Source: Yuukianura sp. NJ FZ-2021 (lineage: Eukaryota). Taken from it: a stretch of DNA of 64,000 nucleotides. Under the pieces are notes generated by a model that made no database searches, was not told the origin of the DNA, and was given only the letters and a program-made list of their open reading frames with translations. Positions within the stretch are counted from its first letter, which is position 1, and every line of letters begins with the position of its first letter. Below, piece by piece: positions 22,113 through 46,473 of this stretch. The position numbers and the translations under genes are program-made. The stretch is taken from the NCBI GenBank assembly GCA_046563655.1, contig CM102286.1:3224001-3288000 (forward strand), in the 5' to 3' direction.

Positions 22113-22390
22113 AATAGGGTCTGGCTAAACGTAGGATGTCGTACTCGTCGGATTCCTCGCATTTGTATAAGTGCCTTCTATTCTATCAGGATGGATTCCT
22201 GGGATTGGTTATCTCGAACTCCTCGCATTTTTAAAAACTCAATCGCTTGATTTCAACTCGTATTTCAATGGTTAACTTTGGTTACGTTTTTACCAAACCA
22301 AAGTGCTCCTTATTAGAGGCCGCGGATTGACAGTGTGCACCCCTCATAAAAATCCGAGGAGTCCGAAATCCGACCTTTAGGCAGATCTTA
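22113..22390. mobile_element. Degenerate MITE-like insertion upstream of ZF2
   Basis: Imperfect ~40-bp terminal inverted repeats (tagggtctggctaaacgtaggat.../...atccgacctttaggcagatctta); absent from the homologous ZF1 upstream region. Confidence 0.5.
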
Positions 22391-22825: not shown

Positions 22826-25342
22826 ATGATTTCGGAGGAAGATACGGATGATAGCGATGAATTCGAGGTTGAGGGCGACAAAGAGATGCTCTTGGAGGAT
22901 CCATTGAGACTTACTCGGAAATGTGCTTGCTGCTCAAATACGATGAAAGACGGAGACCAGGATTTAGTGACCCCATCCAAGACTCGAAATAGGAAACCAA
23001 TTCATTCTATGATCTCAGACTCCTTTTCTGTTCCAAACGGAGCTCTTGCCGAAGCGGATTTTTTATGCTGTTTGTCATGTTCGACTGTCATAACTAATAT
23101 GACCAGAGGGGTTCAAGCACTAAAAAACAGGATGGCGGACAAAAGTATTATTCACTCGTTCTTTCAAACGTTTCAGGTACATATGACCAATTTTTCAAAT
23201 TCAAGGTCTAGACTTTCACTGCCCGAAACACCAGAGCAATCCACATTATCACCAATCGTTCTTGATGTTTCATCAAAGTCGGCGCCGAAAACGTACAGAA
23301 TGAAGCCAAGTAAGAAGCAACCCAATCGTAGTTCTGAAACACTGCTGCCAACAGATAATATCACCCCGTGCGTATCCGTCGCTGCTTTGCCTATGAAGAA
23401 TCGAGTCAACACCCAAATCACCTTTAGCACGGACAACTCACATTCAACCATCCCTTCATCTCTGACACGAACAATTGGAACAGGGATTTTGATGGATCAC
23501 CGTGATGTGGATATGGGTGAAATGGCTTATCCAGATGCTGTACTTACAGAGGAAGAGAAGCTGGCATATAGGAAGACACAAAATATTACTAGAGTTATAG
23601 ACTGCCCTGCACCATACTGTGGACAAGTCTTCACCGGACAACTTTTGGCCGAGGCCGATGGATTGTTGGATAGACACATGACGATGTTTCACCCAACGTT
23701 TGTATGTTGTCATTTTTGCGACACGAAAGTCTACGGCCTGCGAGAAACCATGGCCCGCCAACTACTACAGAGGCATTTAAAAGACCAACATGAAGGAGAG
23801 CCTGTCGTCCCCGAAAATGAAGAAGCTCAAGCTTTTCCTTTGGGAACAAAGATCTTTACTTACAACTGCAAATTTTGTCCGAGAAAAGTGCATGGTTCGA
23901 AAGAGGAAGATAGAAATCGTACAATTTTAAATACAATGATTTATAAGCACCGCGTAAAGGAACATGGCGTTTCACTTCAATGTAAATATTGCAAACATGT
24001 AACCAAAGGAACTCCAGGGAATATTCAGCAAAAGATGAACAGGCACGTTAAATTCATACATGAAAACCAAAGTGACTTCCTGTGCAGAATTTGCCAAAAG
24101 CCGTTCACTGAGAACAATTACATTAGGAAGCACGAATTCACTCATTTTAGCCAAGAAGAGAAAGAAGCTGAACTTGAAAAAGATCCGTCAATACAAACCA
24201 CGACACTCTGTCCTACTTGTGGTGTAGTCCTTAAAGGAATTCTCACTACTGAACAAGGTATACGTTCCTCTTAGAAAATACTATAATTGGATTTTTCTTG
24301 TTGCCGAACCTAAGAGTGGGATTCCAGACTAGTGCTCACTTGTCACCCAGTGCACCCATACATAGATGGGCATAAATTAAATAAACTAATTTCATAATTA
24401 CTTTTAAAATTACTTAAAAATCTCCAAATTACTTTTAAAATTATTTAGTAAATTTAAATAAAAATTTTATTAATATGAAATAATTTTTTTAATGTTTTTA
24501 GTGATAGTTTGTAAAGGCGTTTTGATTTTCCAAAAAAAAAACACATTTAAAAAATATTTCATATTAATAAAATTTAATTTAAATTTATTAAATAATTTTG
24601 AAAGTAATTTGGAGATTTTTAAGTAATTTTAAAAGTAATTATGAAATTAGTTTATTTAATTTATGCCCATCTATGTATGGGTGCACTGGGTGACAAGTGA
24701 GCACTAGTCTGGAATCCCACTCTTAGGTTCGGCAACAAGAAAAATCCAATTATAGTAACTGGCTAATGAATTAACATAACTAACCTATTACTCTGTTCAA
24801 TACTAATTATTCGTCGTGTCTTTTTAGTATTGTTGAGTTGTCATATGAAGCAAGTACATCCAAAGCCGGGGGAAAAGAGGCAAGGCGAGCACAGACGACT
24901 AATGTGCGACCAATGTGATTATACCTCATCCCATCCACGATTATTAGCACGACACAAGTTATGGCGTCACGTTCAAGTCGATTCACCATATTTCAAGTAC
25001 ACTTGCAAGCAATGTGGAGTTGGTTTCCTGCCTGGACAGGGAAAGGAGTTTAAGGATCACACCATGGTGTGCTGTGACGAATCAGAACGACCAGTCATTT
25101 GTACCGAACCGGGTTGTGCCAGGAGATTCACAACGAAGCAGAATCTAATGGGACACCTTATTGGGTTCCACAAGCAAACCCCGGAAGCAGCCCGAGCATT
25201 TCTGTATCCAGGACTTCCTGTACGTGACTGGATCCATAAAATTAAAAGAGTACCAAAGCGCAAGAAAATGGCGGAAGGATCACAAGAGGACTATAGTGAG
25301 GAGTGGTTGAAACGAAGTCGAAGCTTCCAGGAATCCAGATGA
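22826..25342 (+). CDS. C2H2 zinc-finger protein with ZAD-like N-terminus, paralogue 2
   Basis: Exons 22826-24257 and 24828-25342; collinear with paralogue 1. Confidence 0.9.
24281..24755. mobile_element. 475-bp foldback MITE with ~210-bp TIRs and a TA target-site duplication, in the ZF2 intron
   Basis: ctataattggatttttcttgttgccgaacc... is mirrored by ...ggttcggcaacaagaaaaatccaattatag; TA at 24279-24280 and 24756-24757. Confidence 0.9.
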
Positions 25343-26017
25343 ACAGCTCGAGGGAGAAATGAAGAATCTTTTTTTATTGTTTAGCGGAAATAGTTGAATA
25401 GTAACTAGCCTGGTAATCTCGGAAATATTTCCTACAAATTTCTAATTGTACATCAAAAATTACACCAATGCATCTAACTCTAGAAACTTTTTTAACGCTC
25501 AAGGCAAGCCATAATTTCGTCACAATATTTCTAAAATAAATTATTGTCATCGAAATTGAATTCCAAAAATCCATACTGGATGTAACGGAAGTATAGCAAT
25601 TTTTATTTAAACAAAAGGAAAACAAAAAACCTTGATACATTAGCACTTTATCGAGTGTATTCCTTACCCATGCGATGCCCCGCCCCACGGGAGACGGGAC
25701 TTACTAAAATTCAAAAACGTTCTCAATGAGTTTTCGAGTAGCGTTAATCAGTAGTTAGCTTAATCAGACATTATACCGTAATTAGAATTATTGTTGAGCT
25801 TTTCATGCTGGAAGCTGGAGGAACTGAGCTTTCAGTATCATACTCTAATTGACGAGTGTTGCTCCCTCGGTCACAATGCTAATAGCATGGCCATGCAAAC
25901 TATATGTGCAAAAAACTCTCTGTGTGGAAGAGTGGAACGATCCTGGGGTGTACCTTTTACATTGCTTCTCCAAGCACAGACTTCCACAAATTCCATCTCA
26001 ACTCAGAAACCAAAAAG

Positions 26018-26242
26018 AGGGGGGGGGGGTTCTGGGGGGGCTTGCCCCCCCAGCCTTTACAATACATTTTCGATTCAACTAGACGGAGACGGAACCCGTG
26101 ATGCATCAATCACGCAATTACCTTTAAGCACTAGGTCATACCTCGGGGCAAACGAAAAAGCTAGCGGATTTTTGACAAAATGTTCAAAATCATCCTTCCT
26201 TTATGTCATCGTGATGTGTAAACATCACGGGTTCCGTCTAGT
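26018..26242. mobile_element. Non-autonomous element remnant (GC hairpin plus CTAG-terminated inverted repeats, Helitron-like)
   Basis: Hairpin ctgggggggcttgcccccccag; actagacgg(agacgg)aacccgtgatg near 26078 is mirrored by catcacgggttccgtctagt near 26223-26242. Confidence 0.5.
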
Positions 26243-27077
26243 TTTTTTAAATTGCCTACACGTAAAGACCAACAAAAAATAGAAAAATTCAAAAAAAAAA
26301 AAGAAATTATAATAATTATTTATTTCGTCTGTGTGTCCAACTGTGTTTTATTGGGTGAGAGGCTTACCAAAAAAACTTATTGTCAAACGTGACTAAAATA
26401 AAGGTTGACGTTGACGTAAGCTTTACGTATTACTAATAAGTGAATTATATTTGCACGTTAAAGCAACCCCGCTCCGCTGTACAATGGGTGGCTTCATTGT
26501 GGGGCAACTTATGTTACCGCTTTACGTTATGTTAGGGTACAGTGGCTACAAAAGTTTCCATTCAGGTTTACCCGGCCTATTGTAGCCACAAAAGACAGCC
26601 GAAATGGCTACGCAATGTGGCTACAATAATAGTCGTTAATCCTTACTTCCACCTTCACGAGATAAATACTGTTTGTTTCTAAAGATTTGTTTACAAGAAT
26701 AAATACAAATGAAGTTGTTTATTGTTTGATTTGATTGCTAAATTAAATTAAGTGGGGACTTGAGAATCACTGCAATCCAGGGCAACCATTATTGTCTAAC
26801 TCCTCTCATTAGCACCAGAAGAACTGAAAGGTAAAAATTGGAGTACTACTACACGGCATAGAAATAGGAACGTTTGCTGCTAATTAAATAGCAACGCAAT
26901 TGGCAAATGAGCCATAAGATTCACTTATGTCGTACGCAGGTCTGCTGTGTTTGATTACGTGGTGGTTGAGACTTCTGATTATTAAATGCATTGTTTGTTA
27001 TCGGTACTTATACTATGTAACTCACACTTATATTTGTTTGCAGGAATAATCTTACTCTTACTCCTCGTCATCTAAAA

Positions 27078-29153
27078 ATGATCTCGGATGAAGATGTGGA
27101 TGAGAGCGACGAATTCGAGCTTGATGGTGATGAGAACATACACTTGGAGGATCCATTGCTACTGACTCGTAAATGTGCTTGCTGCTCAAATACGATTAAG
27201 GACGGAGAGGGAGACCACGATGGCAATTTAGTGACCTCAGCCAAGGCTCGAAATAGAAGTCCAATTCATTCCATGATCTCAGAATCCTTTTCTGTCCCAA
27301 ACGGAACTCTTGTGGAGGACGAGTTCTTATGTTGTTCCTTATGTTCAACCGTTATGGCTAATATGGCCAGAGCGGTTCAAGCAGTAAAGGACAATATGGC
27401 ACTGAAAAGCAACATTTATTCGTTCTTTCAAACGTTTCAAATGCATATGACCAAGTTCCCCAATTCAAGGTCTCTAAATTCACCTTTAGAAGTACAAGAC
27501 CAACCCGCATTAACACCAATCGTTATTGATGTTTCACCAAAGTCAGCGGCGCAAACGAACCAAATGCAGCCAATTTCAAAGAAACCTAGTTGCAGTGAAA
27601 TATTGCTCCCAACTTATATTATAGCTCCAATCGTCTCCGTCGGAGGTTTGCCTATGAAGAATCGCGGGTCCGCCCAAATGAATTCCAGCAGGAACAGAAC
27701 CCATTCAAACGTTAATCAATCTCTGAAACTATCAATCAAACCCAAGGACTCCGTGAATCACAGGGATATCGATGGAATGAATTATCCTGATGCTATACTT
27801 ACCGCGGAAGAGAAGCAAACGTATCGCAAGCAACAAAATATCTCATCGAGAGTTGTAGACTGTCCTGCGCCATACTGTGGAAAATTTTTCACAGGACAAA
27901 TATTGGCAGAGGCCGATGCATTGTTGGACAGTCACATGACAATGTTCCATCAAACGTTTGTCTGTTGCCACTTCTGCGACAAGAAAGTCTACGGCCTGGA
28001 AGAAACCATGGCTCGTCAACTGCTCCAGCAGCATTTGAAAGATGAACACGAAACAGAGCCTACTATTCCCAACGATGAAGCAGCTCAAGCCTTTCCTTTA
28101 GGAACAAAGATCTTCACTTACAAGTGCAAATTTTGTCCTAGAAAGGTGCATGGTTCACAAGCAGAAGATGGCAATCGTATGATTTTGAAAAGACTGATTC
28201 GCAAGCACCGTGCAAAGGAACACGGCGTTTCACTGCAATGTAAATATTGCACACATGTAGCAAAAGGAACACCAGGGATTGTTCAGCAACGGATGGACAA
28301 GCACGTTAAGTTTCTGCACGAAAATCAAACTGACTTCCGTTGTAGAATTTGTCAAAGGCCGTTCCTATACAGCAGTGTCGTTAAGAAACATGAATACTGT
28401 CACTTTAGCCTAGAAGACAAAGAAGCTGAAGCCGAAAAAGATCCGTCAATACAAACCAAAACACTGTGTCCAACTTGTGGCGTAGTACTTAAAGGATTTT
28501 TCACCACCGAAGAATGTAAGTGTTTCGTTGAATCAAATTAATTTTCTATTTATTTTGTTAAATAAGTACTGTCAAGGAATTTAACCATTGGTGTTGTCAT
28601 TACAGTACTGCTGAAGTCCCATATGAAGAAAGTACATCCATCGGCGGAGAAGATGACGGAAGAAAAGCCCACATCCAAGCGACGCCTAATGTGCGACCAA
28701 TGTGATTACACTTCAGCCGATACAAGATTATTAGCACGACACAAGTTATGGCGTCACGTTCAAATCGATTCGCCCTATTTCAAGTACACTTGCAAACAAT
28801 GTGGACTTGGTTTCCTGCCTGGACAGGGAAAAGAGTTTAAGGATCACACCATGGTGTGCTGCGACGAAGCAGAACGACCAGTCATTTGTACCGAATCGGG
28901 TTGTGCCAGGAGATTCAAAACGAAACAGAATCTAATGGTACACCTTATTGGGTTTCACAAACAAACGCCAGAAGCTGCCAGAGCATTTCTGTATCCAGGA
29001 CTTCCTGTACGTGACTGGATTCAAAACATGAAGAAAGTACCGAAACGGAAGCAAATGGCGGACCATTCACAAGAGGCCAACAGTGAGGACGGAGCGGTAG
29101 AAGGGAAGACGAAGCTTCCGCGAATCCAAGTAAACAACTCGAGGGAAAAATGA
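27078..29153 (+). CDS. C2H2 zinc-finger protein with ZAD-like N-terminus, paralogue 3
   Basis: Exons 27078-28515 and 28606-29153; collinear with paralogues 1 and 2. Confidence 0.9.
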
Positions 29154-29714: not shown

Positions 29715-30654
29715 ATGGCCACTCCTGACCCTGTGAAGAGTCTAAACATGGTGTTTCTTGGAGAAAAACAAGGTAAAAATTGCCGCAGTACATAACTCAG
29801 AATGTCATGATTAACAAAATTGTTTTTGTATTAGTTGGGAAAACAGCACTGATCAACAGGATTATGCATGATGCTCCAATGGACCATAAATTCAAGGTTT
29901 CAGTGGATAAAACATTGAGAGTGATCACTGTTCAAGGGGTCGACAAATCGCTGGAGCTCCACTTAATTGACACTTCCGGAAGAGAACTAAGTAGAGACAC
30001 CATTGACTCCTTCATTCATCACTCTACAATTTTTATTATAGTTTACGATGTCACTAGTGAGTATCTTTTTGTATCTTTTGATATCACTAAATCTGGTATC
30101 TTTTTGTTTCAAATTTCTTTAGTACTACTTAAAAAAACCGTGAACATGAGTTTATTATTTTTTTAAAAAACAACTTTGTGATAGATGCTCACTCTTTTCG
30201 TGTTACTTCGAAATGGGTGGATATTATACGAACGGAGCATGGAGAAGATGCCATCATCAGTTTAGTGGGAAACAAAATTGAGCGAAGTGACGCCCGAGAG
30301 GTGACAACTGAAGAGGGCCAGCAACGAGCTGATGAACTTAACACATTGTTTATTGAAACGAGCGCAGTCGCAGGGCCCAATGTGACCCTCGTAAGTTTAA
30401 TTACACACTTAATAATTGTTTCAATTAAACAAACATTTATTCAAAAAAAGATTTTTTTTGTTTAGTTATTCCACCGACTGGTCATGGCAATTCTGAAAAA
30501 GGAGAAACAACGGGAACTAGAAGAGGCGCTAATTGATGATGGTATGAACATGCTTGTGTCATATGAGCAACAAGTTGTGAAATATTAATCGGTTAAGTGC
30601 AATTTAACTTGTTTTCCAGAGGAGGCAGACAACGAATCATGTTTCATTTGCTGA
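29715..30654 (+). CDS. Divergent Rab6-like small GTPase, copy 1 (198 aa, 5 exons)
   Basis: Exons 29715-29772, 29835-30056, 30185-30390, 30466-30541, 30620-30654. Motifs VFLGEKQVGKT, DTSGRE, VYDVT, LVGNKIE, FIETSAV; ends CFIC*. Confidence 0.9.
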
Positions 30655-31386
30655 ACTTCATGAAAATTCTGTCAATCGAAGATCAAATTGTCTCAGGCGA
30701 CTCCCTACACAAACAAAATTCTCAAGCTGAACCCATTCGTAAACTGTAGGAAAACCTAAGATTGCAAAATAGCGTCGTAGCAAAAGTTCTTCTAAGCTGT
30801 AATGATACTGTATGGGCGTCTCTTCCTGAAAACCTTTGTTCGATGTACTAATAGTTATGCATATTTAACAAGTTAACGCTAAATAAATCCTTAATAACCG
30901 TAATTTCAGTTAACAAGAATTATGGTCATCATTGTATCTTGGAACCAACTGAAACAGTACGAACTGACACTTTTATGTAGAACGCGGTGTTTCATACGCA
31001 TGTCTCCCTTTTTCTGTGAACTTTTTCAGAAACAAGATGCAAGGTGAACGTGAACTTCTTTCCAAAGACAAGAGCGTAAATAACGCTTCTGCACATTCGG
31101 GGATCCTTTACGGTAGTTTTGGGAGGAGTAAAGTGAGAGGAACCAATCAGAGCGAGTTTCCACAACTGTTTACCCTACTGCGTGAAAAAAAATTCGATGA
31201 GATAACCCGCGGAGAAATCAACATTTCACTTCTGCTGGAGAAAGTTGAAGGTAGTCGGTGTCTAATTTTCTGTTCTTGGTTGAATCATTTTTTTCGACGT
31301 TGACATAAGTTCAAATAAAAGAACAATTCTTTTTAACTTTTCGGATAGCTACATTGCTATTGAATCTTGCTTTACTTAGAAACAAA

Positions 31387-32344
31387 ATGGCCACTACTGT
31401 CCCCGTGGAGTCCCTGAACATGGTATTTCTTGGAGAAAAACAAGGTAAAAATTGTCGAAGTACACAACTTAGAATTTCATGATTTACAAAACTGTTTTTG
31501 TATTAAGTTGGAAAAACAGCACTGATCAACCGGATTTTGCAAGATGCTCCAAAGGACACTAAATTTAAGGTTTCAGTGGACAAAACAAAGAAATTGATCA
31601 CTGTTAAAAGGGCCGACAAATGGCTGGAGCTCCATTTAATCGACACTTCCGGAAAAGAACTATGTAGACCCACAATTGACTGCTTCATTCATCACTCTAC
31701 AATTTTTATTGTGGTCTACGATGTCACCAGTGAGTATCTTTTGGTACCACAAATTTTGGTATCTTTGTTTCAAACTTTAATTAAAAAAATCCTAACCATG
31801 AAAATAAGTTTATATATGCTCTTTTTTTCTAAAACAACTTTGTGATAGATGCTCACTCTTTTCGTGTTACTTCGAAATGGGTTGATATTATTCGCTCTGT
31901 GCATGGAGAAGATGCCATCATCAGTTTAGTGGGAAACAAAATTGAGCAAAGTGACGCACGACAAGTGACAACTGAAGAGGGCCAGCAACTATCTGATGAA
32001 TTGCGCACATTGTTTATTGAAACGAGCGCTGTTGCAGGGCCTAATGTGACCATCGTGAGTGTAATTACAAACTTAATTGTTTCAATTGCACAAACATTTA
32101 TTTAAAAGAAAATATTTGTCTTTAGCTATTCCACCGACTGGTCATGGCAATTCTGATAAAGGACAGAAAACGGGAACTAATACAGGAGCTAATTGATGAT
32201 GGTATGAACATGCTCGTTTCAGATGAGCAACAATTTGTAAACTTAAACTTGTAAACCTAAATGTGAACCACGCCTAATTGCAATTTAACTTGTTTTATAG
32301 AAGACGAAGAGGAGGAAGAAGACGCATCATGTTCTATTTGCTGA
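31387..32344 (+). CDS. Divergent Rab6-like small GTPase, copy 2
   Basis: Same 5-exon structure; DTSGKE, NKIE; ends CSIC*. Confidence 0.88.
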
Positions 32345-32491
32345 ACCTCCTTGAAAATTCTATCAGTCGAAGTTGAAATTGTTTTAGGCGGATGCCTAAA
32401 CAATTAGACTACATGGGCGTCTCTTTCTTAAAACCTTTGTCCGATGTACTTAAGTAATTTTTATTTAAAACAATTAGCACTAAATAAATCC

Positions 32492-32901
32492 ATTTGTAAC
32501 CAGGAGGGTACAGAAGTTGCGAAGGTTGGCGATGAAGTCGCGAACGGCTGCTCATAACGGCCCAATATTGTAAGTTACAATGTGTACCCCTTATAGGCCT
32601 AAGTTACTGGAAAAAAAAGAATGGATCTTTGACCTGGAAGGGGGCCAATTTTAGTTACATGAAATACACAAAAGTTGCTTGTTTCGATGAGACGAACAAT
32701 TTTTGTAGCCATCATTTTCTGTTACTGGGGATGAACAGGTTGACCTTGAGCTTTGATGAGGAGAGATTTGGCCCTAAGGTATGGTATTTAATATTGAACT
32801 TCTCTGGGTCGCTAGGTGTAGATGGCGGGAGTGTGACGTCCACGGCAAGACAGACAAACAGACAGACAGAATAGGTCGTTCCATAAAGCAGCTTTCGTTA
32901 C
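32492..32901. mobile_element. Helentron/DINE-1-like non-autonomous element; related copies near 34798-34954, 36875-37185, 38622-39048 and 40753-40985
   Basis: GACA microsatellite, terminal stem-loop (e.g. aagtagc-tctc-gctgctt) and no visible TSD. The empty site aataaatcc/ttaataaccg is seen at 30890/30891. Confidence 0.6.
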
Positions 32902-33605
32902 TTTATAACCGTAATTTCTGTTAACATAATGGCCATCATGGTAAGTATATTGGAATCAACTGAAACAACACGGACGGACACTTTTAGGTAGAACCTGGTA
33001 TAAAAGATTTAAGTACAAAACAGCTCCTTCAAAAACTAATAACGCGAAACTAATTGTTCTTAAATACTCATTACTTTTTAATCCTCATTACTTTTTAATG
33101 ATTAACAGATTTAAACACATCGAAAATCGTTTCCCCCACATTTTGTCAGCATATTGGCGGTGAATATCTCTTTTTCATTAGACTTTTTCAGAAACAAGGT
33201 GCAAGGTGAACGCTCAACAAAGGTGAATACCCACTTTCTGAAGACAATAATGTAAGTAATAACGCTTCTGCACATTCAGGGACCTTTTACGGTTGTCTTG
33301 GGAGGAGTAAGAACCAATCAGAACGAGTTTCCACAACTTTTACATTACTGTATACTCATAGGTTTTTTCTAAACAAAAATCGATGAGAAACGCCACAGGA
33401 AAATCAATACTTCACTTCCGCTGGAGAAAGTTTAACGAAGTTGGTGCCTAATTTCCTGGTCTTGGTTGAAACATATTTTGTGCCGTTGACTTAATTTCAA
33501 ATGAAATTTTTAGCTTTTCTTTTTTTCAATTCTGTCAACAATTCTTTTTAGCATTTCAGATAGCTATATTGCTAGAAAGTCAATCTTGGTTCACTTAAAA
33601 ACAAA

Positions 33606-34545
33606 ATGGCCACTCTTGTCAAGGAGAAGAGCCTAAACATGGTGTTTCTTGGAGAAGGGAGAGGTAAAAATTGCCAACACATAACTTAGAATATCATGGA
33701 TTTAGAAAAGTGTTTTGTATTAGTTGGGAAAACATCGCTAATCAACCGGCTTATGCAAGATGCTCCAATGGACTTTTTATCTATTAATCGTTCAGTGGAT
33801 TCCATTGAATTGGTGTTAGGATTCAAATTGGTTATTGTTAAAGAGGGCGACAAAAGGCTGGATCTCCATTTAATAGATACTACCGGAAGAGAAAGTAGAG
33901 CCACCATTGACTCCTACATTCACAACTCTTCAATTTTTATTATAGTTTACGATGTCACTAGTGAGTATATTTTTGTATCTTTTGGTATCACTAAATCTGG
34001 TATCTTTTTGTTTCAAATCTTTTATTTAAAAAAAAATTCGTACCCGTTTATATGAGTTTAAAAAACAACTTTGTGATAGATGCTCACTCTTTTCGTGCTA
34101 TTTCGAAATGGGTGGATATTATTCGATCTGAGCATGGAGAAGATGCCATCATCGGTTTAGTGGGAACCAAAATTGATCGAGACAAAAGACAAGTGACAAA
34201 TCAAGAGGGCCGGCAACGAGCTGTTGAACTTAACACGTTGTTTATTGAAACGAACGCAGTCGCAGGGCCTAGTCAAGGTGTGACCCTCGTAAGTATACAT
34301 ACACACTTAATTGTTTCAATTGAGCAAACATTTATTTAAAAAGATTTTTTTTGTTTAGTTACTCCACCGAATGGTCATGACAATTCTGAAAAAGGAGAGA
34401 CAGCGGGAACTAGAAAAGTGGCTAATTGATGATGGTATGAAAATGCTTGTTTCAGATGAGCAACAATTTGTGAAATTAACCAGTTAAGTGCAATTTAACT
34501 TATTTTTCAGAGGAGGAATACGACGCACCATGTATCGTTTGCTGA
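33606..34545 (+). CDS. Divergent Rab6-like small GTPase, copy 3 (most divergent)
   Basis: GEGRVGKT, in-frame insertions in the switch I/interswitch region, DTTGRE, TKID, ETNAV; ends CIVC*. Confidence 0.85.
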
Positions 34546-35618
34546 ACTTCCTGAAAATTCTGCCAATCAAAGTTGAAATTGTTTGAGGCGGCTGCCTACT
34601 CAAACAAAATTCTAAAGCTGAATCCATTTGTAAAATGTAGGAAAACCTGAGATTCCAAAATAGCGTCGTAGCCAAAGCAACTACATATTAGTGTTAAAAA
34701 GTTCTTCTAAGCTGTAAGGAGACTATATGGGCTTTTCTTCCTTACAACTTTTGTTCGATGTACTAATAGTAATTTTCATCAAGTAACAAATAAATCCAGT
34801 TGTAACCCGGAGGGTTCGAAAGTTGCGAAAGGTGGAGCCGAAATCGCGAATGGCTGCTAATACCGGCCTAACATTGTAAGTTGCAATTTCTCATTGACGT
34901 CCACGGCAATACAGAGAGGCAGAACATGTGGATGCATAAAGTAGCTCTCGCTGCTTAATAACCGTAGTTTCTATTAACAAGAATAATGGTCATCATGGTG
35001 AGTATCTTGGAATCAACTGAAACAGTACGAACGGACATTTTCATGTAGAACGCAATATAAAAATTATTGGGTACAAAACATTAATCTCCTTCAAAAATTA
35101 ATAACGCGAAACTTTAATTAGCAGATTTAAACAAATGGAAAATCGTTTTCCCCACATTTCATAAGCATATTGGTGGGCGATATCTCTTTTTCATTTGATT
35201 TTTCCGAAGCAAGGTGCAATGCGAACGCTCAACAAAGGTGAATGCCAACTTTCCAAAGACAAGAGTGTAAGTAACGCTTCTGCACATTATTGGAACCGTT
35301 ACGTTACTCTTGGGAGGAGTAAATTGAGAAGAACCCATCAGAACGAGTTTCCAGAACTTGTACCTTGCTGCAATCGTAGATTTTTTCTGTAAAAAAAAAT
35401 CGATGAAATTCGCCACAGAAAACTTTCACTTCCGCTGGAAAAAGTTGAAGGTAGTCGGTACATAAATTCTTGCTCTTGGTTGAAACATATTTTGCGAGGT
35501 TGACATAATTTCAAATGAAAATTTTAGCTTTTCTTTTCTTCAATTGTTTCAACAATTCTTTGTAACTTTTCAGATAGCTACATTGCTAGAAATCCAATCT
35601 TGCTTTACTTAAAAGAAA

Positions 35619-36612
35619 ATGGCCACTCCTGTCCCGGTGAAGAGCCTAAACTTGGTGTTTCTTGGAGAAAAACAAGGTAAAAATTGCCGACGTTCATACT
35701 AACTTGAATTTCAGGACTTACAAAATTGTTTTTGTATTAGTTGGAAAAACAGCACTCATCAACCGGATTATGGAAGATGCTCCAATGGACACATCATTTA
35801 TGGTTTCAGTGGATAAAACATTGAAATTGATCACTGTTAAAGGGGGCGACAAAACACTGGACCTCCATTTAACTGATACTTCCGGAAAGGAACGAAGTGT
35901 TTCCACCATTGACTCTTACATTCATCACTCCACAATTTTTATTATAGTTTACGATGTCACTGGTGAGAGTATCTTCTTGTGTTTTTTGATACCACAAAAT
36001 CTGGAACCGTTTTGTTTAAAATTTTTTTATTTAAAAAAAAAGTCGTACAGTGAACATAAGTTTAATAAGTTTTTTTTTTCATAACAACTTTGTGATAGAT
36101 GCTAGCTCATTCCACGTCACTTCGAAATGGGTGGATGTTATTCGATCTGTGCATGGACAAGATGCCATCATCAGTTTAGTGGGAAACAAAATTGAGCAAA
36201 GTGACGCACGACAAGTGACAACTGAAGAAGGCCAGCAACTAGCTAATGAATTGCGCGCAATGTTTATCGAAACGAGCGCTGTCGCAGGGCCTAATGTGAC
36301 CGTCGTAAGTGTACCTACACACTTAATTGTTTTAATTGAACAAATATTTATTTAAAAAAAGATTATGTATTTTTTCTTTAGTTATTCCACCGACTGGTTA
36401 TGGCAATTCTGAAAAAGGACAGACAGCGGGAACTAATAAGGGAACTAATTGATGATGGTATGAACATGCTCGATTCAGATGAACAACAATTTCTAAACTT
36501 AAATGTAAACTTAAACTTGTTAACATAAATGTTAACCGCTTAATATTGCAACTTAACTTGTTTTATAGAGGAGGAAGAAGAGGAAGAAGACGCATCATGT
36601 TCTATTTCTTGA
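35619..36612 (+). CDS. Divergent Rab6-like small GTPase, copy 4
   Basis: Same exon structure; DTSGKE, NKIE; ends CSIS*. Confidence 0.88.
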
Positions 36613-37467
36613 ACTTCCTGAAAATACTGTCAATCGAAGTTGAAATTGTTGAAGGCGGCTGCCTACACAAACAAAATTCTAGCGAAGCTGATAGCATCCG
36701 TAAACTGTAGGAAAACCTGAGATTCCAAAATAGCGTCGTAACAAAAGTAATTAGAAATTAGTGTTAAAAAGTTCTTATAAGCAGTAACGACGGTATATGG
36801 GCGTCTCTTCCTTAAAACCTTTGTTCTGTGTACTAATAGTAATTTTCATTTAACAAGTAACACTAAATAAATCCAGTTGTAACTCGGAGGGTACGAATGT
36901 TGCGAAGGTTGGCGCTGAAATGAGGAACGGCTCCTCATAACGGCCCAACATTTTAAGTTGTAAGGGTCACTTTGGGTCCCATGAAATAGACAAAAGTTGC
37001 TTATCTCGATGAGATGAACAATTTTTGTAGAGATCAAGTTCTGTTACCGGAGAAGAACAGGTTGACCATGACTTTTGTTGCGGAAAGAGTTGGCCTACCG
37101 GGATGATATTTAATATTAAACATCTCTCTCTGGGAGGCTAGGTAGTGTAGATCCCGGAAATGTTGAGTCGTTAGCGAGAATTGATCCATGAGAACGAGTT
37201 TCCACAACTGGTACGCTCTGTATACTCGCAGTTCTTTCTGTAAAAAAAAATCGATGAGATACGCCGCAGACAAACTTCACTTTCGCTGGAGAAAGTTGAA
37301 GGTAGTTGGTCTATAATTTCCTGGTTTGGTGGAAACATTTTTTTCGAGTTGACATAATTTCAAATGAAAGTTTTAACTTTTCATTCCTTCAATTCTTTCA
37401 ACAACTCTTTTTAACTTTTCGATAGCTAAATTGCTAGAAAGTCAATCTTGCTTCACTTAAAAACAAA

Positions 37468-38390
37468 ATGGCCACTCCTGTCCGGGTGAAGAGCCTAAAC
37501 TTGGTGTTTCTTGGAGAAAAACAAGGTAAAAATTGCCGAAGTGCATACTACCTTAGAATATCACGATTTACAAAATTGTTTTTGTATTAGTTGGAAAAAC
37601 GGCGCTAATCAACCGGATTATGGAAGATGCTCCAATGGACACTTCATTTATGGTTTCAGTGGATAAAACATCGAAATTGATCACTGTTAAAGGTGGCGAC
37701 AAAACGCTGGACCTCCATTTAATTGACACTTCCGAAAAAGAACGAAGTGTAGCCACCATTGACTCCTTCATTCGTCACTCCACAATTTTTATTGTAGTTT
37801 ACGATGTCACTGGTGAGTATCTTTTGACACCACAAAATGTGAAATTTTAAGTTTAAAATTTCTTTACTTTAAAAAAAATTGGTAACCGTGAGCATAAGTT
37901 TTTATAAGTTTTTTACCAAAACAACTTTGTAATAGATGCTAACTCATTCCGTGCCACTTGGAATTGGGTGGATGTTATTCGATCCGTGCATGGAGACGTT
38001 GCCATCATCAGTTTAGTGGGAAACAAAATTGAGCAAAGTGAAGCACGGAAAGTGACAACTGAAGAGGGCCAGCAACTAGCTGATGAATTGCGCACATTGT
38101 TTATTGAAACGAGCGCTGTCGCAGGGCCCAATGTGACCGTCGTAAGTATACTTACACACGTAATTGTATCAATTGAACAAACATTTATTTAAAAAAAATA
38201 TTTTTTTTCTTTAGTTATTCCACCGACTGGTCATGGAAATTCTGAAAAAGGACAGACAACGGGAACTAATAAGGGAACTAATTGATGAGGGTATGATGGT
38301 AATCCTAACTGTTAACCGCTTAATTGCAATTTAACTTGGTTTATAGAGGACTTAGAGGATGAAGACGACGCATCATGTGTTATTTGCTGA
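37468..38390 (+). CDS. Divergent Rab6-like small GTPase, copy 5 (G3 glycine lost)
   Basis: Same exon structure; DTSEKE, NKIE; ends CVIC*. Confidence 0.85.
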
Positions 38391-39563
38391 ACTAACCTAA
38401 AAATTCTCTCAATCGAAGATGAAATTGTTTAAGGCGGCTGGCGGCTGCCTACAAAAAAAAAATTCTAGCGAAGCTGATAGCATCCGTAAACTGTAGGAAA
38501 ACCTGAGATTCCAAAATAGTGTCGTAACAATAGTAATAAGAAATTCGTGCAAAAGATAGGTAAGAAAAAGTTCAGTGTACTAGTAGTGATTTTCATTTAA
38601 CAAATAACACTTAATAAATCCAGTTGTAACCCGAAGGGTACGGAATGCGAAGGGTGGCGCTGAAGTCGCGGACGGCTGTTCATACCGGCCTAACATTGTA
38701 AGGTGCAACTTCTAACCCCTAATAGGCCATAGTTACTGGAAAAAAAAAGAGTTGATCTTTGACCTGGAAGGGGGGTCAATTTGGCTTATATGAAATTCAC
38801 AAACCTCGATGAGATAAACAATTTTTGTAGAGATCTTGCATTGTCTGTTTGGGATGAACCGATTGATCTTGAGCTTTGATGCAGAAGGACTTGACCCACC
38901 GGTATGATATTTAATATTGAACATTTTTGGGTCGCTAGTAGATGGAGATCCCGGATATGTTGAGCCGTTTACGACATAATTGACGTCCACTCCAAAGCAG
39001 ACATACAGACTGACAGAAAATGTCGTCACATAAAGTAGCTGTCGTTATTTAATAACCGTAATTTCTGTTAAAAATGATGGTCATCATGGTGAGTATCTTG
39101 GAATAAATTGAAACAGTACGAACGTATACTTTTATGTAGGACGCGGTATAAAAGTTTGATGAGCAATGGCTTGACCCATCGGTATGATATTTAATATTAA
39201 ACATCTCTGGGTCGCTAAAACATTAATCTCCTTCAAAAATCTTCAAAAATTAAAGTGAGAAGAACCAATCACAACGAGTTTCCACAACTGGTACCTTAGT
39301 CTATACTCTCGTAGTTTTTTCTGTAAAAAAATCGATGAGATACGACACAGAGAAATCAACATTTCACTTCCGCTGGAGAAAGTTGAAGGTAGTTGGAGCA
39401 TAATTTCTTGTGCTTTGCTTGAAACATACTTTGCGACGTTGGCATAATTTCAAATGAAAGTTTTAACTTTTCTTTCCTTCAATTCTTTCAACAATTCTTT
39501 TTACGTTTTCGATAGCTGCATTGCTAGAAAGTCAATCTTCGCCTAAAAGTCGCCTAAAACAAA

Positions 39564-40513
39564 ATGGCCAGTCCTATTCCGACGAGGAGCCTAAACTTGG
39601 TGTTTCTTGGAGAAAAACATGGTAAAAATTGCTGTAGTAATGTAGTATACATACTTAGAACGTCATGATTTACCAAGATGTTTCTGTATTATTAGTTGGA
39701 AAAACAGCACTGATCAACCGGATTATGCAAGATGCTCCAATGGACCCTAAATTTAGGGTTTCAGTGGATAAAACATTGAGATTGATCACTGTGCAAGGGG
39801 TAGACAAATCGCTGGAGCTCCACTTAATTGACACTTCCGGAAGAGAACTAAGTAGAGACACCATTGACTCCTACATTCATCACTCTTCAATTTTTATTGT
39901 AGTTTACGATGTCACTAGTGAGTATATTTTTTATCTTTTCATACCACTAAATCTGGTATCTTTTTGTTCAAATTTCTTTAGTACTTAAAAAAACCGTGTA
40001 CATGAGTTTATTATTTTTTTAAAAAACAACTTTGTGATAGATGCTCACTCTTTTCGTGTTACATCGAAATGGGTGGATATTATTCGAGCTGAGCATGGGA
40101 GGAGATGCCATCATCAGTTTAGTGGGAAACAAAATTGAGCAAAGTGACGCACGAGAAGTGACAACTGAAGAGGGCCAGCAACGAGCTGATGAACTTAACA
40201 CATTGTTTATTGAAACGAGCGCAGTCGCAGGGCCCAATGTGACCCTCGTAAGTGTAATTACACACTTAATAATTGTTTCAATTAAACAAACATTTATTTA
40301 AAAAAAAAGATATTTTTTGTTTAGTTATTCCACCGACTGGTTATGGCAATTCTGAAAAAGGAGAGACAACGGGAACTAATAGAGCAGCTAATTGATGATG
40401 GTATGAACATGCTTGTTTCAGATGAGCAACAATATGTGAAAGATTAACCAGTTAAGTGCAATTTAACTTGTTTTCCAGAGGAGGAATACGACGCACCATG
40501 TTTTATTTGCTGA
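39564..40513 (+). pseudogene. Divergent Rab6-like small GTPase, copy 6, with a +1 frameshift in exon 3
   Basis: gagcatgggaggagatgcc versus gagcatggagaagatgcc in copy 1 gives one extra G near 40097-40099. Otherwise intact, so it could be a sequencing error. Confidence 0.7.
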
Positions 40514-41413
40514 TCTTCCTGAAAATTCTGTCAATCGAAGTTGAAATTGTGTAAGGTGTCTGCCTACCCCTACACAAATATAATTGTAGGAAAGATTCCA
40601 AAATAATAAAATAGTAATAAAAGTAATTACAAATTAGTTTTAAAGAGTTCTTCTGAGCGGTAATGAGACTACATGGGCGTCTCTTCCTTAAGACCTTTGT
40701 TCTGTGTGCTTAAATAGTAATTTTCATTTAACAAGTAGCAGTAAATAAATCCATAACCCGGATTGTACGAAAGTTGCGAAGGTTGGCGCTGAAATCGCGT
40801 ACGGCTGCTCATGGCGGCCCAACATTGTATAAGTTGTAAGGGCGTCACTTTGGTTCACATGAAATAGACAAAAGTCGCTCATCTCGATGAGATGAACATT
40901 TTTGTGGAGATTATTTTTTGTTACCGTTGATGAACAGGTTAACCTTGACTTTTGATACGGAAAGAGTTGACCCACCGGGATAACTGATGACCCACCCCTA
41001 CATTTCATAAGCATTTTGGTGAGGGATATCTCTTTTTTAGTAAACGTTTTTAGAAACAAGATGCAAGATGAACGTGTCATGCCCACTTTCCAAAGACAAA
41101 AGGGTAAATACCGCTTCTGCACATTCGGGGAACCTTTATGGTAGTCTTGGGAGGAGTAAAGTGAAAAGAACCCATCGAAAACAAGTTTCCATAACTGGTA
41201 CACTCGTATTTTTTTTTCTGCAAAAAAAATCGATGAGATACGCCGCAGTAAAACTTCACTTTCGCTGGAGAAAGTTGAACCTAGTTGGTTCATAATTTCC
41301 TGTTTTGGTTGAAACATTTTTTTGGACGTTGACATAATTTCAAATAAAAGTTTGAACTTTTCATTATAGAGCTATATTGCTAGAAAGTCAATCTTGTTTT
41401 ACTTAAAAACAAA

Positions 41414-42323
41414 ATGGCCACTTCTGTTCCGACGAAGAGCCTAAACTTGGTGTTTCTTGGAGAAAAACAAGGTAAAAATTGAAGTAGTACATACTTAGAA
41501 CATCATGATTTACCAAGCTGTTTTTGTATTAGTCGGAAAAACAGCACTGATCAACCGGATTATGCAAGATGCTCCAAAGGACACTAAATTTAAGGTTGCA
41601 GTGGATAAAACAAAGAAATTGATCACTGTTAAAGGGGGTGATAAATCGCTGGAGCTCCATTTAGTTGACACTTCCGGAAGAGAGCGATGTAGAGCCACCA
41701 TTGACTCTTTCATTCATCACTCTACAATTTTTATTGTAGTTTACGACGTTACTGGTGAGTATATTTTTGCTCCTTTGTTTATTTTTAAAAAATTCATAAC
41801 TATGAACATAAGTTTATATAAAGTTCTTCTCTTTTTTTTCAAAACAACTTTGTGATAGATGCTAACTCGTTTCGTGTTACTTCGAAATGGGTGGATGTTA
41901 TTCGATCTGAGCATGGAGAAGATTCCATCATCAGTTTAGTGGGAAACAAAATTGAGCGAAGTGATGAACGACAAGTGACAACGCAAGAGGGCCAGCATCG
42001 AGCTGATGAACTGCGGACATTGTTTATTGAAACGAGCGCAGTCGCAGGGCCTAACGTGACTGTCGTAAGTGTGCTTACACACTTAATTGTTTCAATTAAA
42101 CAAGCATTTATTTAAAAAAAAAAATTTTTTTTTAGTTATTCCACCGACTGGTCATGGCAATTTTGAAAAAGGACAGACGGGAGGCCTTGGAAGATGGTAT
42201 GAGCCATAACTCTTGTGATAAATGAGCAATAATTTGGAAAATGTTTTAGTTTAACCAATTAATCGAAATCTAACTTGTTTTTTTTTAGACGAGGAAGACG
42301 AGAAATCATGTTTCATTTGCTGA
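41414..42323 (+). CDS. Divergent Rab6-like small GTPase, copy 7
   Basis: Same exon structure; DTSGRE, NKIE; ends CFIC*. Confidence 0.88.
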
Positions 42324-44383
42324 ATTTCCTGAAAATTTTATCAAACGGAGTTCAAATTGTTTGAGGCGGCTGCCTACACAAACATAATTCAAGCGAAACT
42401 GAATCCATCCGTAAACTGTAGGGAAAGCTGAGATTCAAAAATAGTGTAGTAACAAAACTATAATTAGAAATTAGTTTAAAAAGTTGTTCTAGACTCTAAT
42501 GAGATTGTATGAGCGTCTCTTCATTCAAATCTTTGTTGGATGTAGTAGTAGTTTTTACTTAAAAAGTAAAACTAAATAACCTTAATACTTTATCATTCAG
42601 TTGACACTTTCAATGTCTATTTCCGGAATTATTTTGTGAAAAAACTCGGCGCAGAGGAAGTAACTTTGCCCAAACAAAAGTTAATTATACGTGTGGGAGT
42701 TATTCCTCTACATTTCCATTAATTATCGGATTTTCTGGCAAAAGTTTGCTAAAACATTAATTAAAAAGTAAGGTTTCCCAATGTTACAAAAAAGTCACAA
42801 AGTTTCAGCAGTTGAAAATCACCAAAAAACCACAGTCATAGTACTGCAGGTCTAAAGTTTAACTAAATGAAATTAAGTTGCCTTTGATGCTAATAATCTA
42901 AAGTACCGCGGGTGTTGAAATGAAACAGAACAGAAACCACCATTTATATTAATACAGAATTACTACGAAATCTTTTGATCATTAATAGAAAATACAGTGT
43001 GGGAGTTTTAGAAATAAAAGATGAATTTTAGATAATTTTTTGTCTTTGTTTCACTCTGTACCGAAATCTAAGTTTGAATCAAATGAATCATCCCACGTTT
43101 CAGGTTCTGTTCGCTTAAAACATTTTTCATAAATTTGAAAACTTTAGTAGCAGAACCTTTCATTGCGCAATTTTTAGCCATATTTGATAGAAGGATACGG
43201 TACAACTTAAAACTTCTGGATGGATTCTATTTGTACACAAAACAAAACAATATGCTTTTGGTGTTCAAATATTTCATATGTCTTCAAATTTGTAACAGCC
43301 TGGTAGCTCGGAAAACTTTGCGTTAAACCAGCGAACGAAGGCCTGTTGCTCAATGCGAGGTTCTACTTTAATGCTATTTTCTAAATCAAGGATTCTCATC
43401 ATCTATTTAAGCACACTTTTGCAACATCGACGCAATATGTGCTTGTTTTATTTTGTAGAAAACATTACTACCGGTAGTGGTTTCAATAAAACCTTCCGGG
43501 GGTAGGATGAGAATTTTGTAACAACTTTTTTTTTACCATTGCACAATTTTGTTTCTGAGAAAACCTCTGTGAATTTTATACTGAATGTTAATTGAAAAAA
43601 AAATACTGTCGAGAGTAAAATCCGCAAGCTTAATAAGTATCTTTTATACGCAATTTTCTTTGTACTTGTCAAAAATTTCAACCACTTTGCTTATTAATTC
43701 AATTTCGTTTCGAATCATTAGAAAGTTTTCGTTTTGCGATACAAAAGTGATGTGTGGTTAGAAATTTTTTCTAAGAATTTTTGTTTGTCGTTTCGTTTTC
43801 AACTAACCTTGAAAAACAAGTGACAGGACTTGTAAAAACAGAAGTTTTGAACTGCCCGAAACCCGGTCTCGAGTTCCCAAAAGACCAGCTTAAAAAATAT
43901 CTTAAGGGAATGGATTTTATATTTCATAAACTTAGCATCTAACATCAAAACGCCATTAGAAGGTTCGTCAACTCTTCTGGAACCGCAACTTCATATTGTC
44001 TTTTTCTCTTTTTTGAAAAGTATCTCTCTAACTCCATAATTTTTTCTGTCATTTCAGAAAATGTTGCTCGAAGTCAGCCGTGTAGAACGACCAAAGGCCT
44101 TCTTCTTTCAAGCTGAATTTTATTTTCCATGCTTGCATGCTGCAAAACGAAGCAGAATTTTTCCCAAGGCTTAGTTTTTTCTTTTAACACCGCCCTCTCA
44201 TTCGATGTTTGCTATTGTCAGTCTTTTAGTAAGTTACACACATCACTTTTTGCAAAATAGGCCAGTAAACATTACTCTGTTGTAAGAACTTACCGTTAGA
44301 CAATTGCTAATTGTCACTTCAACCTGTCTAAATCATAATGTGACCACAGTCAATAAGTTTCTTGTGTGAGTATTGTGTTCAAA

Positions 44384-46473
44384 ATGGACAATTCATTAAA
44401 AAGTGTTGATTTTATCAAAAATTTAAACAGTAATGGCGTTCTTCTAATTTGTGGCTTCGTGGCTCTAGTTTCGTTCAATCGAAAATCATTTTTGTCAAAA
44501 ACAGTTTTTACCGTGCTAAAATGGATCCGAATTTTTGTAGAAGATTTATGCCTCACATACCTCTCTTCTTTATGGATCCTCATAATCTGTGGATTTCCAC
44601 AAAGTGCTTGCATGATCTACCGATGGTTCGTTTGGATCTATGTTAAACTTAAATTCGGATCCCAAGCTACGACTATTGACAATTTGGATGTTGTTGGCAT
44701 TGTGGAAGACGATGACGCTCCAGTGGCAATTCTTTCACTGAAAGTTCTGGACGGTGTTTGTGACCTGGATGACCTCAGAGCCAGAATTCTAGCTACCGTT
44801 ACAAAGAAAAATGATAGGGGTCAATTGAAATTTCCCAAATTTCAGCAAACACTAAAAAGTTTTAGTGGCTATGCCTGTTGGATCCCGTCACAACTTGATA
44901 TCAATTATCACGTGAGAATTCTGGACAGCCTGGATGCGGAAGAACTAAACAGCGATTTTTCTTCCGTTAGTGAAAGTCGTGTGCTGGAATTAATTAGTCC
45001 TTTGGCAAAGTGCCGATTTGAACCACGGCGGTCACCGTGGGAAGTTCTCGTGGTACCAAAGTTTCACTATGACTGTGAATCTCCCACGGAGATCATTGAC
45101 CGCTTTGCAATTATCATTCGCGTTCATCATGCCATTGGTGATGGTTACTCTTTTCTGAAACTAATCATACGAGACACAAGTTTAGAAGGAGATGACAATG
45201 TCAACTGTCCGACTCCCGCCACTCCGAAAACGTCAATCATGCCTCTGTGGAAAGGAATTCTGGTTTTTCTGTATTTGACCTTGAGGGGAACCAGAGCTCT
45301 TCTAGCAGAAACTTTTGTCGTAGATGACAATCCGCTATTCAGGAGAAAACCCAGCGGCAAAACGGTTTTAGCCTGGTCACCTCCGATGTCACTGAATTTT
45401 CTTAGAGAACTCAAGAATTCTTCAGGCGTTGGACTAACAACAGTATTTTTAGCTGCTTTGACCTCAAGTGTCAGAAAATATATTTATGAGGTCAGTAAAT
45501 TCTCAAGGTCAAGGTACAATTAAGTTGAAAACGCAGAGGTCAAATGTGAAATGCTTTTTTTTGTAGGAATTCAATGTGGAGCCAAGTTCCCTCTCTGCTG
45601 TCATTCCATTTCCGGCTCCGAATCACCCGAATAACAAAATCACAAACAAATTCAGTTTTGTGCGATTTCCACTTCCGTGTTCAGAAGCTTCTGGAGATCC
45701 ATTGAAGTATTTAAAGGCAATGGAAATTCAAAGTAGGAAGTTAGCGACTGCGCCGGATGGGCCAATGAACTTGCTCCTTTTGCATATGGTTGGAGTATTT
45801 CCTACGAGACTCATCAGAGGATTCCTCAGAAACAAACAATCTACGTTGGTCATTTCAAATTTACCGGGACCTTCTCAAAGAATTTCAATTTGGGGAAAAC
45901 CGTTGGCCGAAACCATGTTTTGGTTATCACCACTTGGAGTTTCGGGTGAATTTCAAAAAACGTTAAACTTTTCTCAAGAATTTCCTCATTTGAAATTTTC
46001 GGAATTATTTGTTTTTAGGAATTAGTGCCGCTTTCCTGAGCTACAACTCTCAGTTTCGTCTTGGTCTTACAGTTGACACAGGAATTATAACGGATGGACG
46101 CGTAGGAGCAACGCGCCTAATTCAGGGATTTCTGGATTCAATTTTGGCCACAGCCCACAGTCTTGGTGTTTCTCCCGAACGTGCTTTTCCACAAGTGACT
46201 ATGATGGATAAATTGACCTCAGAGGGGAAAGTTCAACCTACGCCAGCTAAGTTTCCAGGAAATGAAAACCCTAAAAGTGAAACTGAAAGTGAAACTTGCG
46301 GCCACTTTTCACTTGATTCGTCGGAAACCGTCAGCGGTGGAAGAAATGACGATGGCCACGCCGATAATGAATTAACCTCTAATGAAATTAGACCGGAAAC
46401 ACAAAACTGTCACACACGATTCCCCAAACGATCAAACACAATGACGAAGTCTCCACCTACACTTACCAATTAG
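44384..46473 (+). CDS. Wax ester synthase/diacylglycerol acyltransferase (WS/DGAT) family protein, 3 exons
   Basis: Catalytic RVHHAIGDG (HHxxxDG), SPWEVL, LVISNLPGP, FLSYNSQFRLG and a hydrophobic N-terminus. Exons 44384-45490, 45567-45945, 46019-46473. Confidence 0.88.

Follow-up and report, generated by a model that had tools for sequence, protein, structure and literature searches.

Rab6, a switch protein of the Golgi, belongs to the five Rabs that are close to indispensable, and its described relatives form the background for a tandem array of seven genes that lies on the forward strand, at 29715-42323, of a 64-kb stretch of DNA from Yuukianura sp. NJ FZ-2021 (contig CM102286.1, positions 3,224,001 to 3,288,000); the whole of this stretch is called the window below. 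To judge from their sequences, the seven copies are a variant within the Rab6 lineage, being neither Rab6 proper nor nucleotide-free pseudoGTPases, and all seven have lost the switch II glutamine, as the first-pass annotation of the window had noted.

Functional Rabs without this glutamine are known: Rab20 has Arg at the position (as have copies 1, 3, 6, and 7 of the array), Rab24 has Ser, and Rab25 has Leu. All three retain NKxD, the RabF motifs, and the hydrophobic-triad Trp, and each is an ancient single-copy subfamily without relation to Rab6. Outside the Rabs, the residue equivalent to Gln61 of Ras is replaced in Rnd1-3, in RhoH, and in oncogenic Ras Q61K/R, just as it is in all seven copies (Arg in four, Lys in three), and by analogy this substitution would predict a constitutive GTP-bound state that is regulated by the level of the protein. 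However, these proteins belong to the Rho and Ras families rather than to the Rabs. The Rnd proteins are farnesylated via a CaaX box.

Among the derivatives of Rab6 itself, Rab41 keeps the canonical G motifs. Vertebrate Rab41 and Rab6C resemble the array in being lineage-restricted offshoots of Rab6, but they are single mammalian genes, and the Rab survey in question reports neither a tandem array nor an invertebrate expansion (PMC3425129). The same survey records no Rab6 expansions in the genomes examined except those of angiosperms and vertebrates (Rab6b, Rab41, and Rab6c), in agreement with the statement of the first-pass annotation that Rab6 is normally low-copy (PMC3425129). The pseudoGTPases, such as the p190RhoGAP domains, AAGAB, and EhRabX10, are like the copies in that they combine a GTPase fold with G motifs that have degenerated (PMC5593906, PMC12490416, PMC8514894). 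Unlike them, the copies retain a P-loop and guanine-binding motifs that are under constraint, and the nucleotide-free class therefore does not fit.

Structure of the Array

The array consists of seven head-to-tail paralogues of five exons each, with units that are 1664-2231 bases apart, and three families of direct repeats (D3, D5, and D6), each with seven members, have this same period. The gene model of copy 1 was made by hand, and those of the other copies were made by a script modelled on copy 1, which considered GT or GC donors and AG acceptors lying no more than 40 bases from the homologous boundaries and chose the open combination most like copy 1. All 28 introns are of the GT..AG type and are 60-136 nucleotides long; such short spliceosomal introns, with a G+C content in the window of 0.33-0.43, indicate a eukaryotic genome. 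The limits of the array are exact, 29715 being the first base of the ATG of copy 1 and 42323 the end of the stop codon of copy 7. The repeats, the introns, and these limits bear out the seven five-exon tandem paralogues of the first-pass annotation, but only six of the seven reading frames are open as assembled (193-204 amino acids, with about 595 coding bases per copy), copy 6 being frameshifted. A tblastn search of the whole window with copy 1 revealed no eighth copy and only two further weak matches (E 0.026 and 0.19).

The copies, all on the forward strand, are given below with their exons, followed by switch I, the G3, G4, and G5 motifs, and the C-terminus:

Copy 1, 29715-30654 (+), open, 198 amino acids; exons 29715-29772, 29835-30056, 30185-30390, 30466-30541, and 30620-30654; KVSVD, DTSGR (Arg codon AGA at 29981-29983), NKIE, ETSAV, CFIC.
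Copy 2, 31387-32344 (+), open, 198 amino acids (201 with the acceptor at 32301); exons 31387-31444, 31508-31729, 31849-32054, 32126-32201, and 32310-32344; KVSVD, DTSGK, NKIE, ETSAV, CSIC.
Copy 3, 33606-34545 (+), open, 204 amino acids; exons 33606-33663, 33724-33960, 34080-34288, 34359-34434, and 34511-34545; NRSVD, DTTGR, TKID, ETNAV, CIVC.
Copy 4, 35619-36612 (+), open, 198 amino acids (201 with the acceptor at 36569); exons 35619-35676, 35741-35962, 36099-36304, 36382-36457, and 36578-36612; MVSVD, DTSGK, NKIE, ETSAV, CSIS (Ser in place of the terminal Cys).
Copy 5, 37468-38390 (+), open, 198 amino acids (201 with the acceptor at 38347); exons 37468-37525, 37591-37812, 37936-38141, 38215-38290, and 38356-38390; MVSVD, DTSEK (DxxG without its Gly), NKIE, ETSAV, CVIC.
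Copy 6, 39564-40513 (+), frameshifted as assembled; homologous exons 39564-39621, 39696-39917, 40041-40247, 40325-40400, and 40479-40513; with the frame restored, RVSVD, DTSGR, NKIE, ETSAV, CFIC.
Copy 7, 41414-42323 (+), open, 193 amino acids; exons 41414-41471, 41533-41754, 41859-42064, 42136-42196, and 42289-42323; KVAVD, DTSGR, NKIE, ETSAV, CFIC.

Copy 3 is the most diverged copy and has in-frame insertions following switch I and following G5. The nearest paralogue of copy 6 is copy 1 (synonymous divergence, dS, 0.12). Exon 3 of copy 6 has 207 nucleotides as against 206 in the other copies (209 in copy 3): its G-run at 40097-40099 has one G more than in the other six copies, and the shifted frame stops at 40138. 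The extra G may have arisen by an actual insertion that makes copy 6 a pseudogene, or it may be a mistake of base calling. In copies 2, 4, and 5, the acceptor of intron 4 is ambiguous by 9 nucleotides, and use of the upstream TTATAG acceptor would add three acidic residues in frame. The flanks of the copies, upstream as well as downstream, have diverged about as much as the introns. No TATA-like box was found in the flanks of the array, and the window contains no Rfam match.

Sequence Motifs

The readings of G3, G4, G5, and switch I in the first-pass annotation all proved correct. The P-loop GxxxxGKT is intact in all seven copies (GEKQVGKT in five, GEGRVGKT and GEKHVGKT in the other two), and DTxG is kept in every copy except copy 5. 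At the position of the switch II Gln, copies 1, 3, 6, and 7 have Arg (AGA), and copies 2, 4, and 5 have Lys, encoded by AAA or AAG. The Asp of NKxD is the main guanine-specificity contact; G4 is NKIE in six copies and TKID in copy 3. G5 is ETSAV, or ETNAV in copy 3, and SAK occurs in none. The copies thus differ from canonical Rab6 (Rab6A/B and Ypt6) in having [ITV]DT[ST][GE][RK] for WDTAGQE, NKIE for NKxD, and SAV for SAK.

The ends of the proteins also depart from Rab6. Behind a stretch rich in Asp and Glu, the copies end in CxxC or, in copy 4, CxxS, and the CxC tail of the Rab6 type is found in none of them, whereas Acropora Rab-6A ends in GGCVC. The accepted Rab prenyl motifs are XXXCC, XXCCX, XCCXX, CCXXX, XXCXC, as well as XCXXX (PMC5902227), and of these only XCXXX, and not the XXCXC class to which Rab6 belongs, is matched by the CxxC and CxxS ends. 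The four motifs RabF1-F4, which are bound by the Rab escort protein (REP) and by most Rab partners (PMC5902227), are absent: where Rab6 has IGIDF, RLQLW, RFRSLI, and YIRDS, comparison by eye gives for copy 1 VDKTL (ungapped) or VSVDK (with MAFFT), ELHLI, LSRDTI, and FIHHS. A RabF5-like I[IV]VYDVT is present, again by eye, in all seven copies.

The Ras family of Pfam matches both large exons of copy 1, exon 2 with E 3.4e-7 (Roc 5.5e-8) and exon 3 with E 7.8e-13. From the Asp before switch I to the Asp of DTxG there are 28 residues in both copy 1 and Rab6 when counted by hand, which agrees with the HMMER alignment. In such an ungapped alignment, six copies have Ser and copy 7 has Ala where Rab6 has the switch I Thr, and the position of the triad Phe (the Phe of IGIDF), which is residue 47 of copy 1, reads L/K/E/L/S/L/K from copy 1 to copy 7. 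The position of the triad Trp reads I/I/I/T/I/I/V, and that of the triad Tyr keeps an aromatic residue (F or Y). Compared with canonical Rab6, the copies have thus lost two of the three triad residues as well as RabF1-F4.

Relationship to Rab6

Canonical Rab6 is the best match in the PDB for both large exons. With exon 3, the first 10 of the 152 sequences matched are Rab6 (E 1.9e-21 to 3.5e-17), after which come yeast Ypt6 at 3.9e-11 and the rest at 2e-8 or above; with exon 2, the first 11 of 80 are Rab6 or Ypt6 (1e-8 to 1.2e-5), followed by Rab1A at 3e-4. The half of the copies that holds alpha3, G4, and G5 is Rab6-like, including the stretch TSKWVD..R.E.G. Identity to Acropora Rab-6A is 42-47% over the whole protein and about 65% over exon 3, and it is much lower over exon 2; the nearest Rab6 sequences for exon 3 are those of Acropora (65%) and of nematodes (64%).

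A tree was built by a quick IQ-TREE search from 58 sequences, namely, the seven script-spliced copies, their one outside relative (P0003, described in the next section), and 50 database matches of 175-245 amino acids; proteins outside this range of lengths were left out, as were 15 multi-domain, duplicated, or insert-bearing ones. The seven copies and P0003 form a single clade (100 in the Shimodaira-Hasegawa-like approximate likelihood-ratio test, SH-aLRT) with a long stem, of 1.89 changes per site, and this clade nests inside the group that contains the Acropora Rab-6A sequences. The derivation from Rab6 put forward by the first-pass annotation is thus upheld by a phylogeny of the spliced proteins and by the PDB ranking. 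Since the tree holds no named non-Rab6 Rabs, the assignment to Rab6 rests on the two together. The tree also holds neither Rab41 nor Rab6C.

The published rules of Rabifier require at least one RabF motif for a Rab and 40% identity for a subfamily, RabF1-F4 being given as igvdf, klqiw, rfxxxt, and yyrga (PMC3192815). The identity of 42-47% just clears this cut-off for Rab6, and, with the published rules applied by eye, the copies would pass as Rabs via the RabF5-like IVYDVT.

Distribution

Exon 2 is the half specific to the family, and it was searched against 1.84 billion representative proteins. This search gave 76 matches at E of 1e-3 or below, of which the only close one is P0003, a fragment of 146 amino acids that is 55% identical, comes from a 624-nucleotide ENA contig, and is alone in its own cluster. 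P0003 matches the Ras family of Pfam with E 2e-30. It has NKIE and SAVAGPNVT in common with the copies, yet it retains DTSGQ; the changes in G4 and G5 therefore predate both the array and the loss of the glutamine. No intron interrupts the reading frame of P0003 at the exon 2/3 junction; further on, the frame enters sequence resembling intron 3. P0003 may be either a partly spliced transcript or a gene without intron 2 in another species.

The two best matches of exon 2, P0001 and P0002, are bacterial repeat proteins whose scores are added up over 8 and 19 weak stretches, made up of PPC and other repeats, and they were rejected as summed chance matches. Word-index protein searches yielded no further family member: exon 2 gave 35 candidates, none of which scored; exon 3 gave 253, of which 29 reached E of 1e-8 or below, all of them canonical Rab6-type proteins with at most 65% identity; and P0003 gave 11, of which two scored, one being P0003 itself and the other an unrelated Rab-like protein at 39%. 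In JGI metagenome contigs, the exon 2 alignment matched 13 loci at 25-31% identity, none a member of the family, and the ESM Atlas, queried with P0003, returned generic Rab clusters only, the structural TM-score against a Rab6 cluster being 0.88. A search of the literature found no description of such a Rab6-derived family and no use of the term NKxE. The finding of one relative only in these large searches supports a family restricted to a narrow lineage, which is what the first-pass annotation had claimed.

Selection

In pairwise comparisons by the method of Nei and Gojobori, the ratio of nonsynonymous to synonymous divergence (dN/dS) is 0.33-0.87 with a median of 0.57, and dS is 0.12-0.31; the divergence of the introns, with the Jukes-Cantor correction, is about the same as dS (0.10-0.375). 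Codon models were fitted with our own GY94-type code (F3x4) to 191 ungapped codons, copy 6 being read through minus its extra base. Under the one-ratio model M0, dN/dS (omega) is 0.66, with a likelihood-ratio test (LRT) statistic of 8.75 against a value of 1. The codons were divided into three partitions set in advance from Rab6 homology, numbered as in copy 1:

Core, residues 13-33 and 83-165 (103 codons): omega 0.43, LRT against 1 of 25.9.
Switch I to switch II, residues 34-82 (48 codons): omega 0.90, LRT against 1 of 0.38.
Tails, residues 1-12 and 166-198 (40 codons): omega 1.04, LRT against 1 of 0.05.

The heterogeneity between the partitions has an LRT of 29.0 with 2 degrees of freedom. 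The core of the G domain is under purifying selection, and the switch/interswitch face and the tails are not distinguishable from neutral. A dN/dS near 1 across all sites, which the first-pass annotation had named as the mark of decaying duplicates, is thus not what is found; the sites are heterogeneous, with 45% of them at an omega of 0.12 under model M1a.

Model M2a improves on M1a (LRT 9.8, 2 degrees of freedom) and places 2.8% of sites at an omega of 5.4. Residue 47 of copy 1, the site that reads L/K/E/L/S/L/K, is the only one with a posterior above 0.8. The site test uses seven sequences only, and the placement of this residue on the triad Phe depends on the ungapped alignment of switch I, so that the result is a hint of diversification at the triad Phe position. 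The triad Phe is one of the chief determinants of a Rab's choice of effector.

A Proposed Rewiring of Rab6 and Its Alternatives

The explanation that we favour, and to which we give about an even chance, is that the array encodes small GTPases of a lineage-restricted subfamily derived from Rab6, which bind nucleotide, are probably poor at hydrolysing it, and have a rewired partner surface. The subfamily would have diverged fast and would then have been amplified in tandem fairly recently, as the low dS between copies suggests. The copies would still bind guanine nucleotide and Mg, given that all of them keep GKT, that six have Ser for the switch I Thr in the ungapped alignment, and that six keep DxxG. 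Lys or Arg in place of the switch II Gln would make intrinsic hydrolysis very slow, for which Ras Q61K/R and the widely used Rab6 Q72L are parallels. The proteins would then stay mostly GTP-bound and be set by their abundance rather than by a cycle of guanine nucleotide exchange factors (GEFs) together with GTPase-activating proteins (GAPs), as in the case of Rnd or RhoH. Because two of the three triad residues (Phe, now L/K/E/S, and Trp, now I/T/V) and RabF1-F4 are lost, the effectors of Rab6, REP, and the GDP dissociation inhibitor (GDI) are probably no longer used. The CaaX-like CxxC or CxxS box behind the acidic stretch would provide membrane anchoring by a single prenyl group. Finally, most differences between the paralogues fall on the face that binds partners, and so the copies may each have a partner of their own.

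Several observations weigh against this explanation. The alignment of switch I is ambiguous: MAFFT with P0003 puts K/M/R/N, not Ser, at the Thr position, and P0003 itself has Asp there under the ungapped alignment. The change from Asp to Glu in NKxD could weaken or alter guanine binding and so favour a nucleotide-poor state. CxxC is absent from the listed Rab motifs, and which prenyltransferase would act on it is a guess. The comparisons with databases were made with single exons. For a Rab, an omega of 0.66 overall is high, and three copies look compromised (copy 6 by its frameshift, copy 5 by the loss of the DxxG Gly, and copy 3 by a terminal-branch omega of 1.49). The trees from the thirds of the gene unit conflict, copies 2 and 4 grouping at 87 in the 3' third and copies 4 and 5 at 93 and 90 elsewhere, and therefore gene conversion may bias or inflate the results of the site models. 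Lastly, GAPs of the TBC type supply both an Arg and a Gln finger in trans (PMC3919270), and therefore the loss of the Gln in cis need not abolish regulated hydrolysis. The term "hydrolysis-dead" in the first-pass annotation is thus too strong: it was drawn from Ras Q61K/R, and the study just cited shows that the effect of a Rab's own Gln varies from one Rab to another (PMC3919270).

This last point leads to another possibility, which we consider unlikely though reasonable, namely, that the copies are ordinary cycling switches that bind GTP, obtain catalytic residues from a GAP in trans, and serve as tissue- or stage-specific regulators of Rab6-like trafficking. The action of RUTBC3 on Rab5 is unaffected by mutation of the switch II Gln, but for Rab35 and Rab1 this mutation strongly cut GAP-stimulated hydrolysis (PMC3919270). 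Conserved nucleotide-binding motifs, a core under purifying selection, and the DTSGQ retained in the only outside relative are all consistent with cycling; however, switch II and the RabF motifs, by which GAPs, GEFs, REP, and GDI recognise a Rab, are rewritten, and the Trp and the Phe of the hydrophobic triad are lost.

A third explanation is that the copies are duplicates that are silent or in decay: a marginal gene would have been amplified in tandem not long ago, and most of the copies would be on the way to becoming pseudogenes. This would account for the frameshift of copy 6, the DTSEK of copy 5, and the terminal-branch omega of copy 3 (LRT 8.3 against the background), as well as for an overall omega of 0.66 and for switch and tail partitions that are indistinguishable from an omega of 1. 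It is also consistent with upstream flanks that are no better conserved than introns and with the fact that no protein predicted from these genes is present in the protein collections searched. However, six frames are open over some 595 coding bases each at a dS of up to 0.31, and all 28 introns have intact splice sites. Constraint on the core is clear (omega 0.43), and among copies 1, 2, 4, and 7 alone the pairwise core omega falls to 0.18-0.31. These same four copies have terminal-branch omegas of 0.43, 0.49, 0.30, and 0.44, respectively (the values for copies 5 and 6 being 0.75 and 0.82), and P0003, from which a much deeper split separates them, shares their derived NKIE and SAV. The family as a whole is not decaying, although copies 3, 5, and 6 may be, and we regard the decay of most of the array as quite improbable.

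More speculatively, the copies could be GTP-locked, singly prenylated mimics of Rab6 whose partner face diversifies under conflict. As such, they might act as decoys or sensors for the factors of pathogens or symbionts that target Rab6, or they might be paralogue-specific tags of membrane identity that bypass GEF, GAP, REP, and GDI; we consider either of these roles a long shot.

The least probable explanation, and in our opinion a very improbable one, is the "pseudo-GTPase" of the first-pass annotation if taken as a nucleotide-free scaffold in which altered G2-G5 motifs jointly abolish nucleotide binding and the fold is an interaction module only, since, even though four of the five G motifs differ from the Rab6 consensus and the NKxD Asp is Glu in six copies, GxxxxGKT, [NT]KI[ED], and ET[SN]AV are present in all seven and DTxG in six, the carboxylate is kept in NKIE, and these motifs lie in the partition with an omega of 0.43, where, without a bound nucleotide, selection would have little reason to hold them.

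Neighbouring Genes

Other features of the window, including further tandem repeats of genes, are as follows; the exoribonuclease, the MAGUK-like gene, and the pipsqueak-type ORF are flanking genes of ordinary kinds:

66-398 and 653-985 (-), identical translations of 110 amino acids, 587 bases apart, which point to a near-perfect tandem duplication at the left end of the window.
5415-7513 (-), a Dis3-like RNB exoribonuclease.
8967-10881 (+), a MAGUK-like gene with L27 and guanylate-kinase pieces.
19213-29153 (+), directly upstream of the array, three tandem copies of a two-exon gene; its first open reading frame (ORF) has 506-532 amino acids and no Pfam match (in the first copy, which was scanned), and its second has about 190 amino acids and a weak match to a C2H2 zinc finger.
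44357-46473 (+), close to the array on its downstream side, a gene for a protein with the catalytic domain of wax ester synthase/diacylglycerol acyltransferase (Pfam WS_DGAT_cat, E 4.2e-7).
48608-49093 (-), an ORF with a pipsqueak-type helix-turn-helix, which may be transposon-derived.
49611-57521 (-), four tandem copies of a gene of three ORFs, each of about 115-160 amino acids and hydrophobic, which resemble multi-pass membrane proteins; in one copy, none of the three ORFs has a Pfam match.

Significance

The array is a family of seven genes in which the core of Rab6 is kept and the residue for catalysis, the motif that gives guanine specificity, the effector triad, and the lipid anchor are rewritten, and as such it may be regarded as a natural experiment in the limits to which a Rab can be rewired without being lost. 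If the copies are expressed, they would constitute a natural panel of Gln-to-Lys/Arg and NKxD-to-NKxE variants with which to follow the handling of nucleotide and recognition by REP, GDI, GAPs, and effectors.

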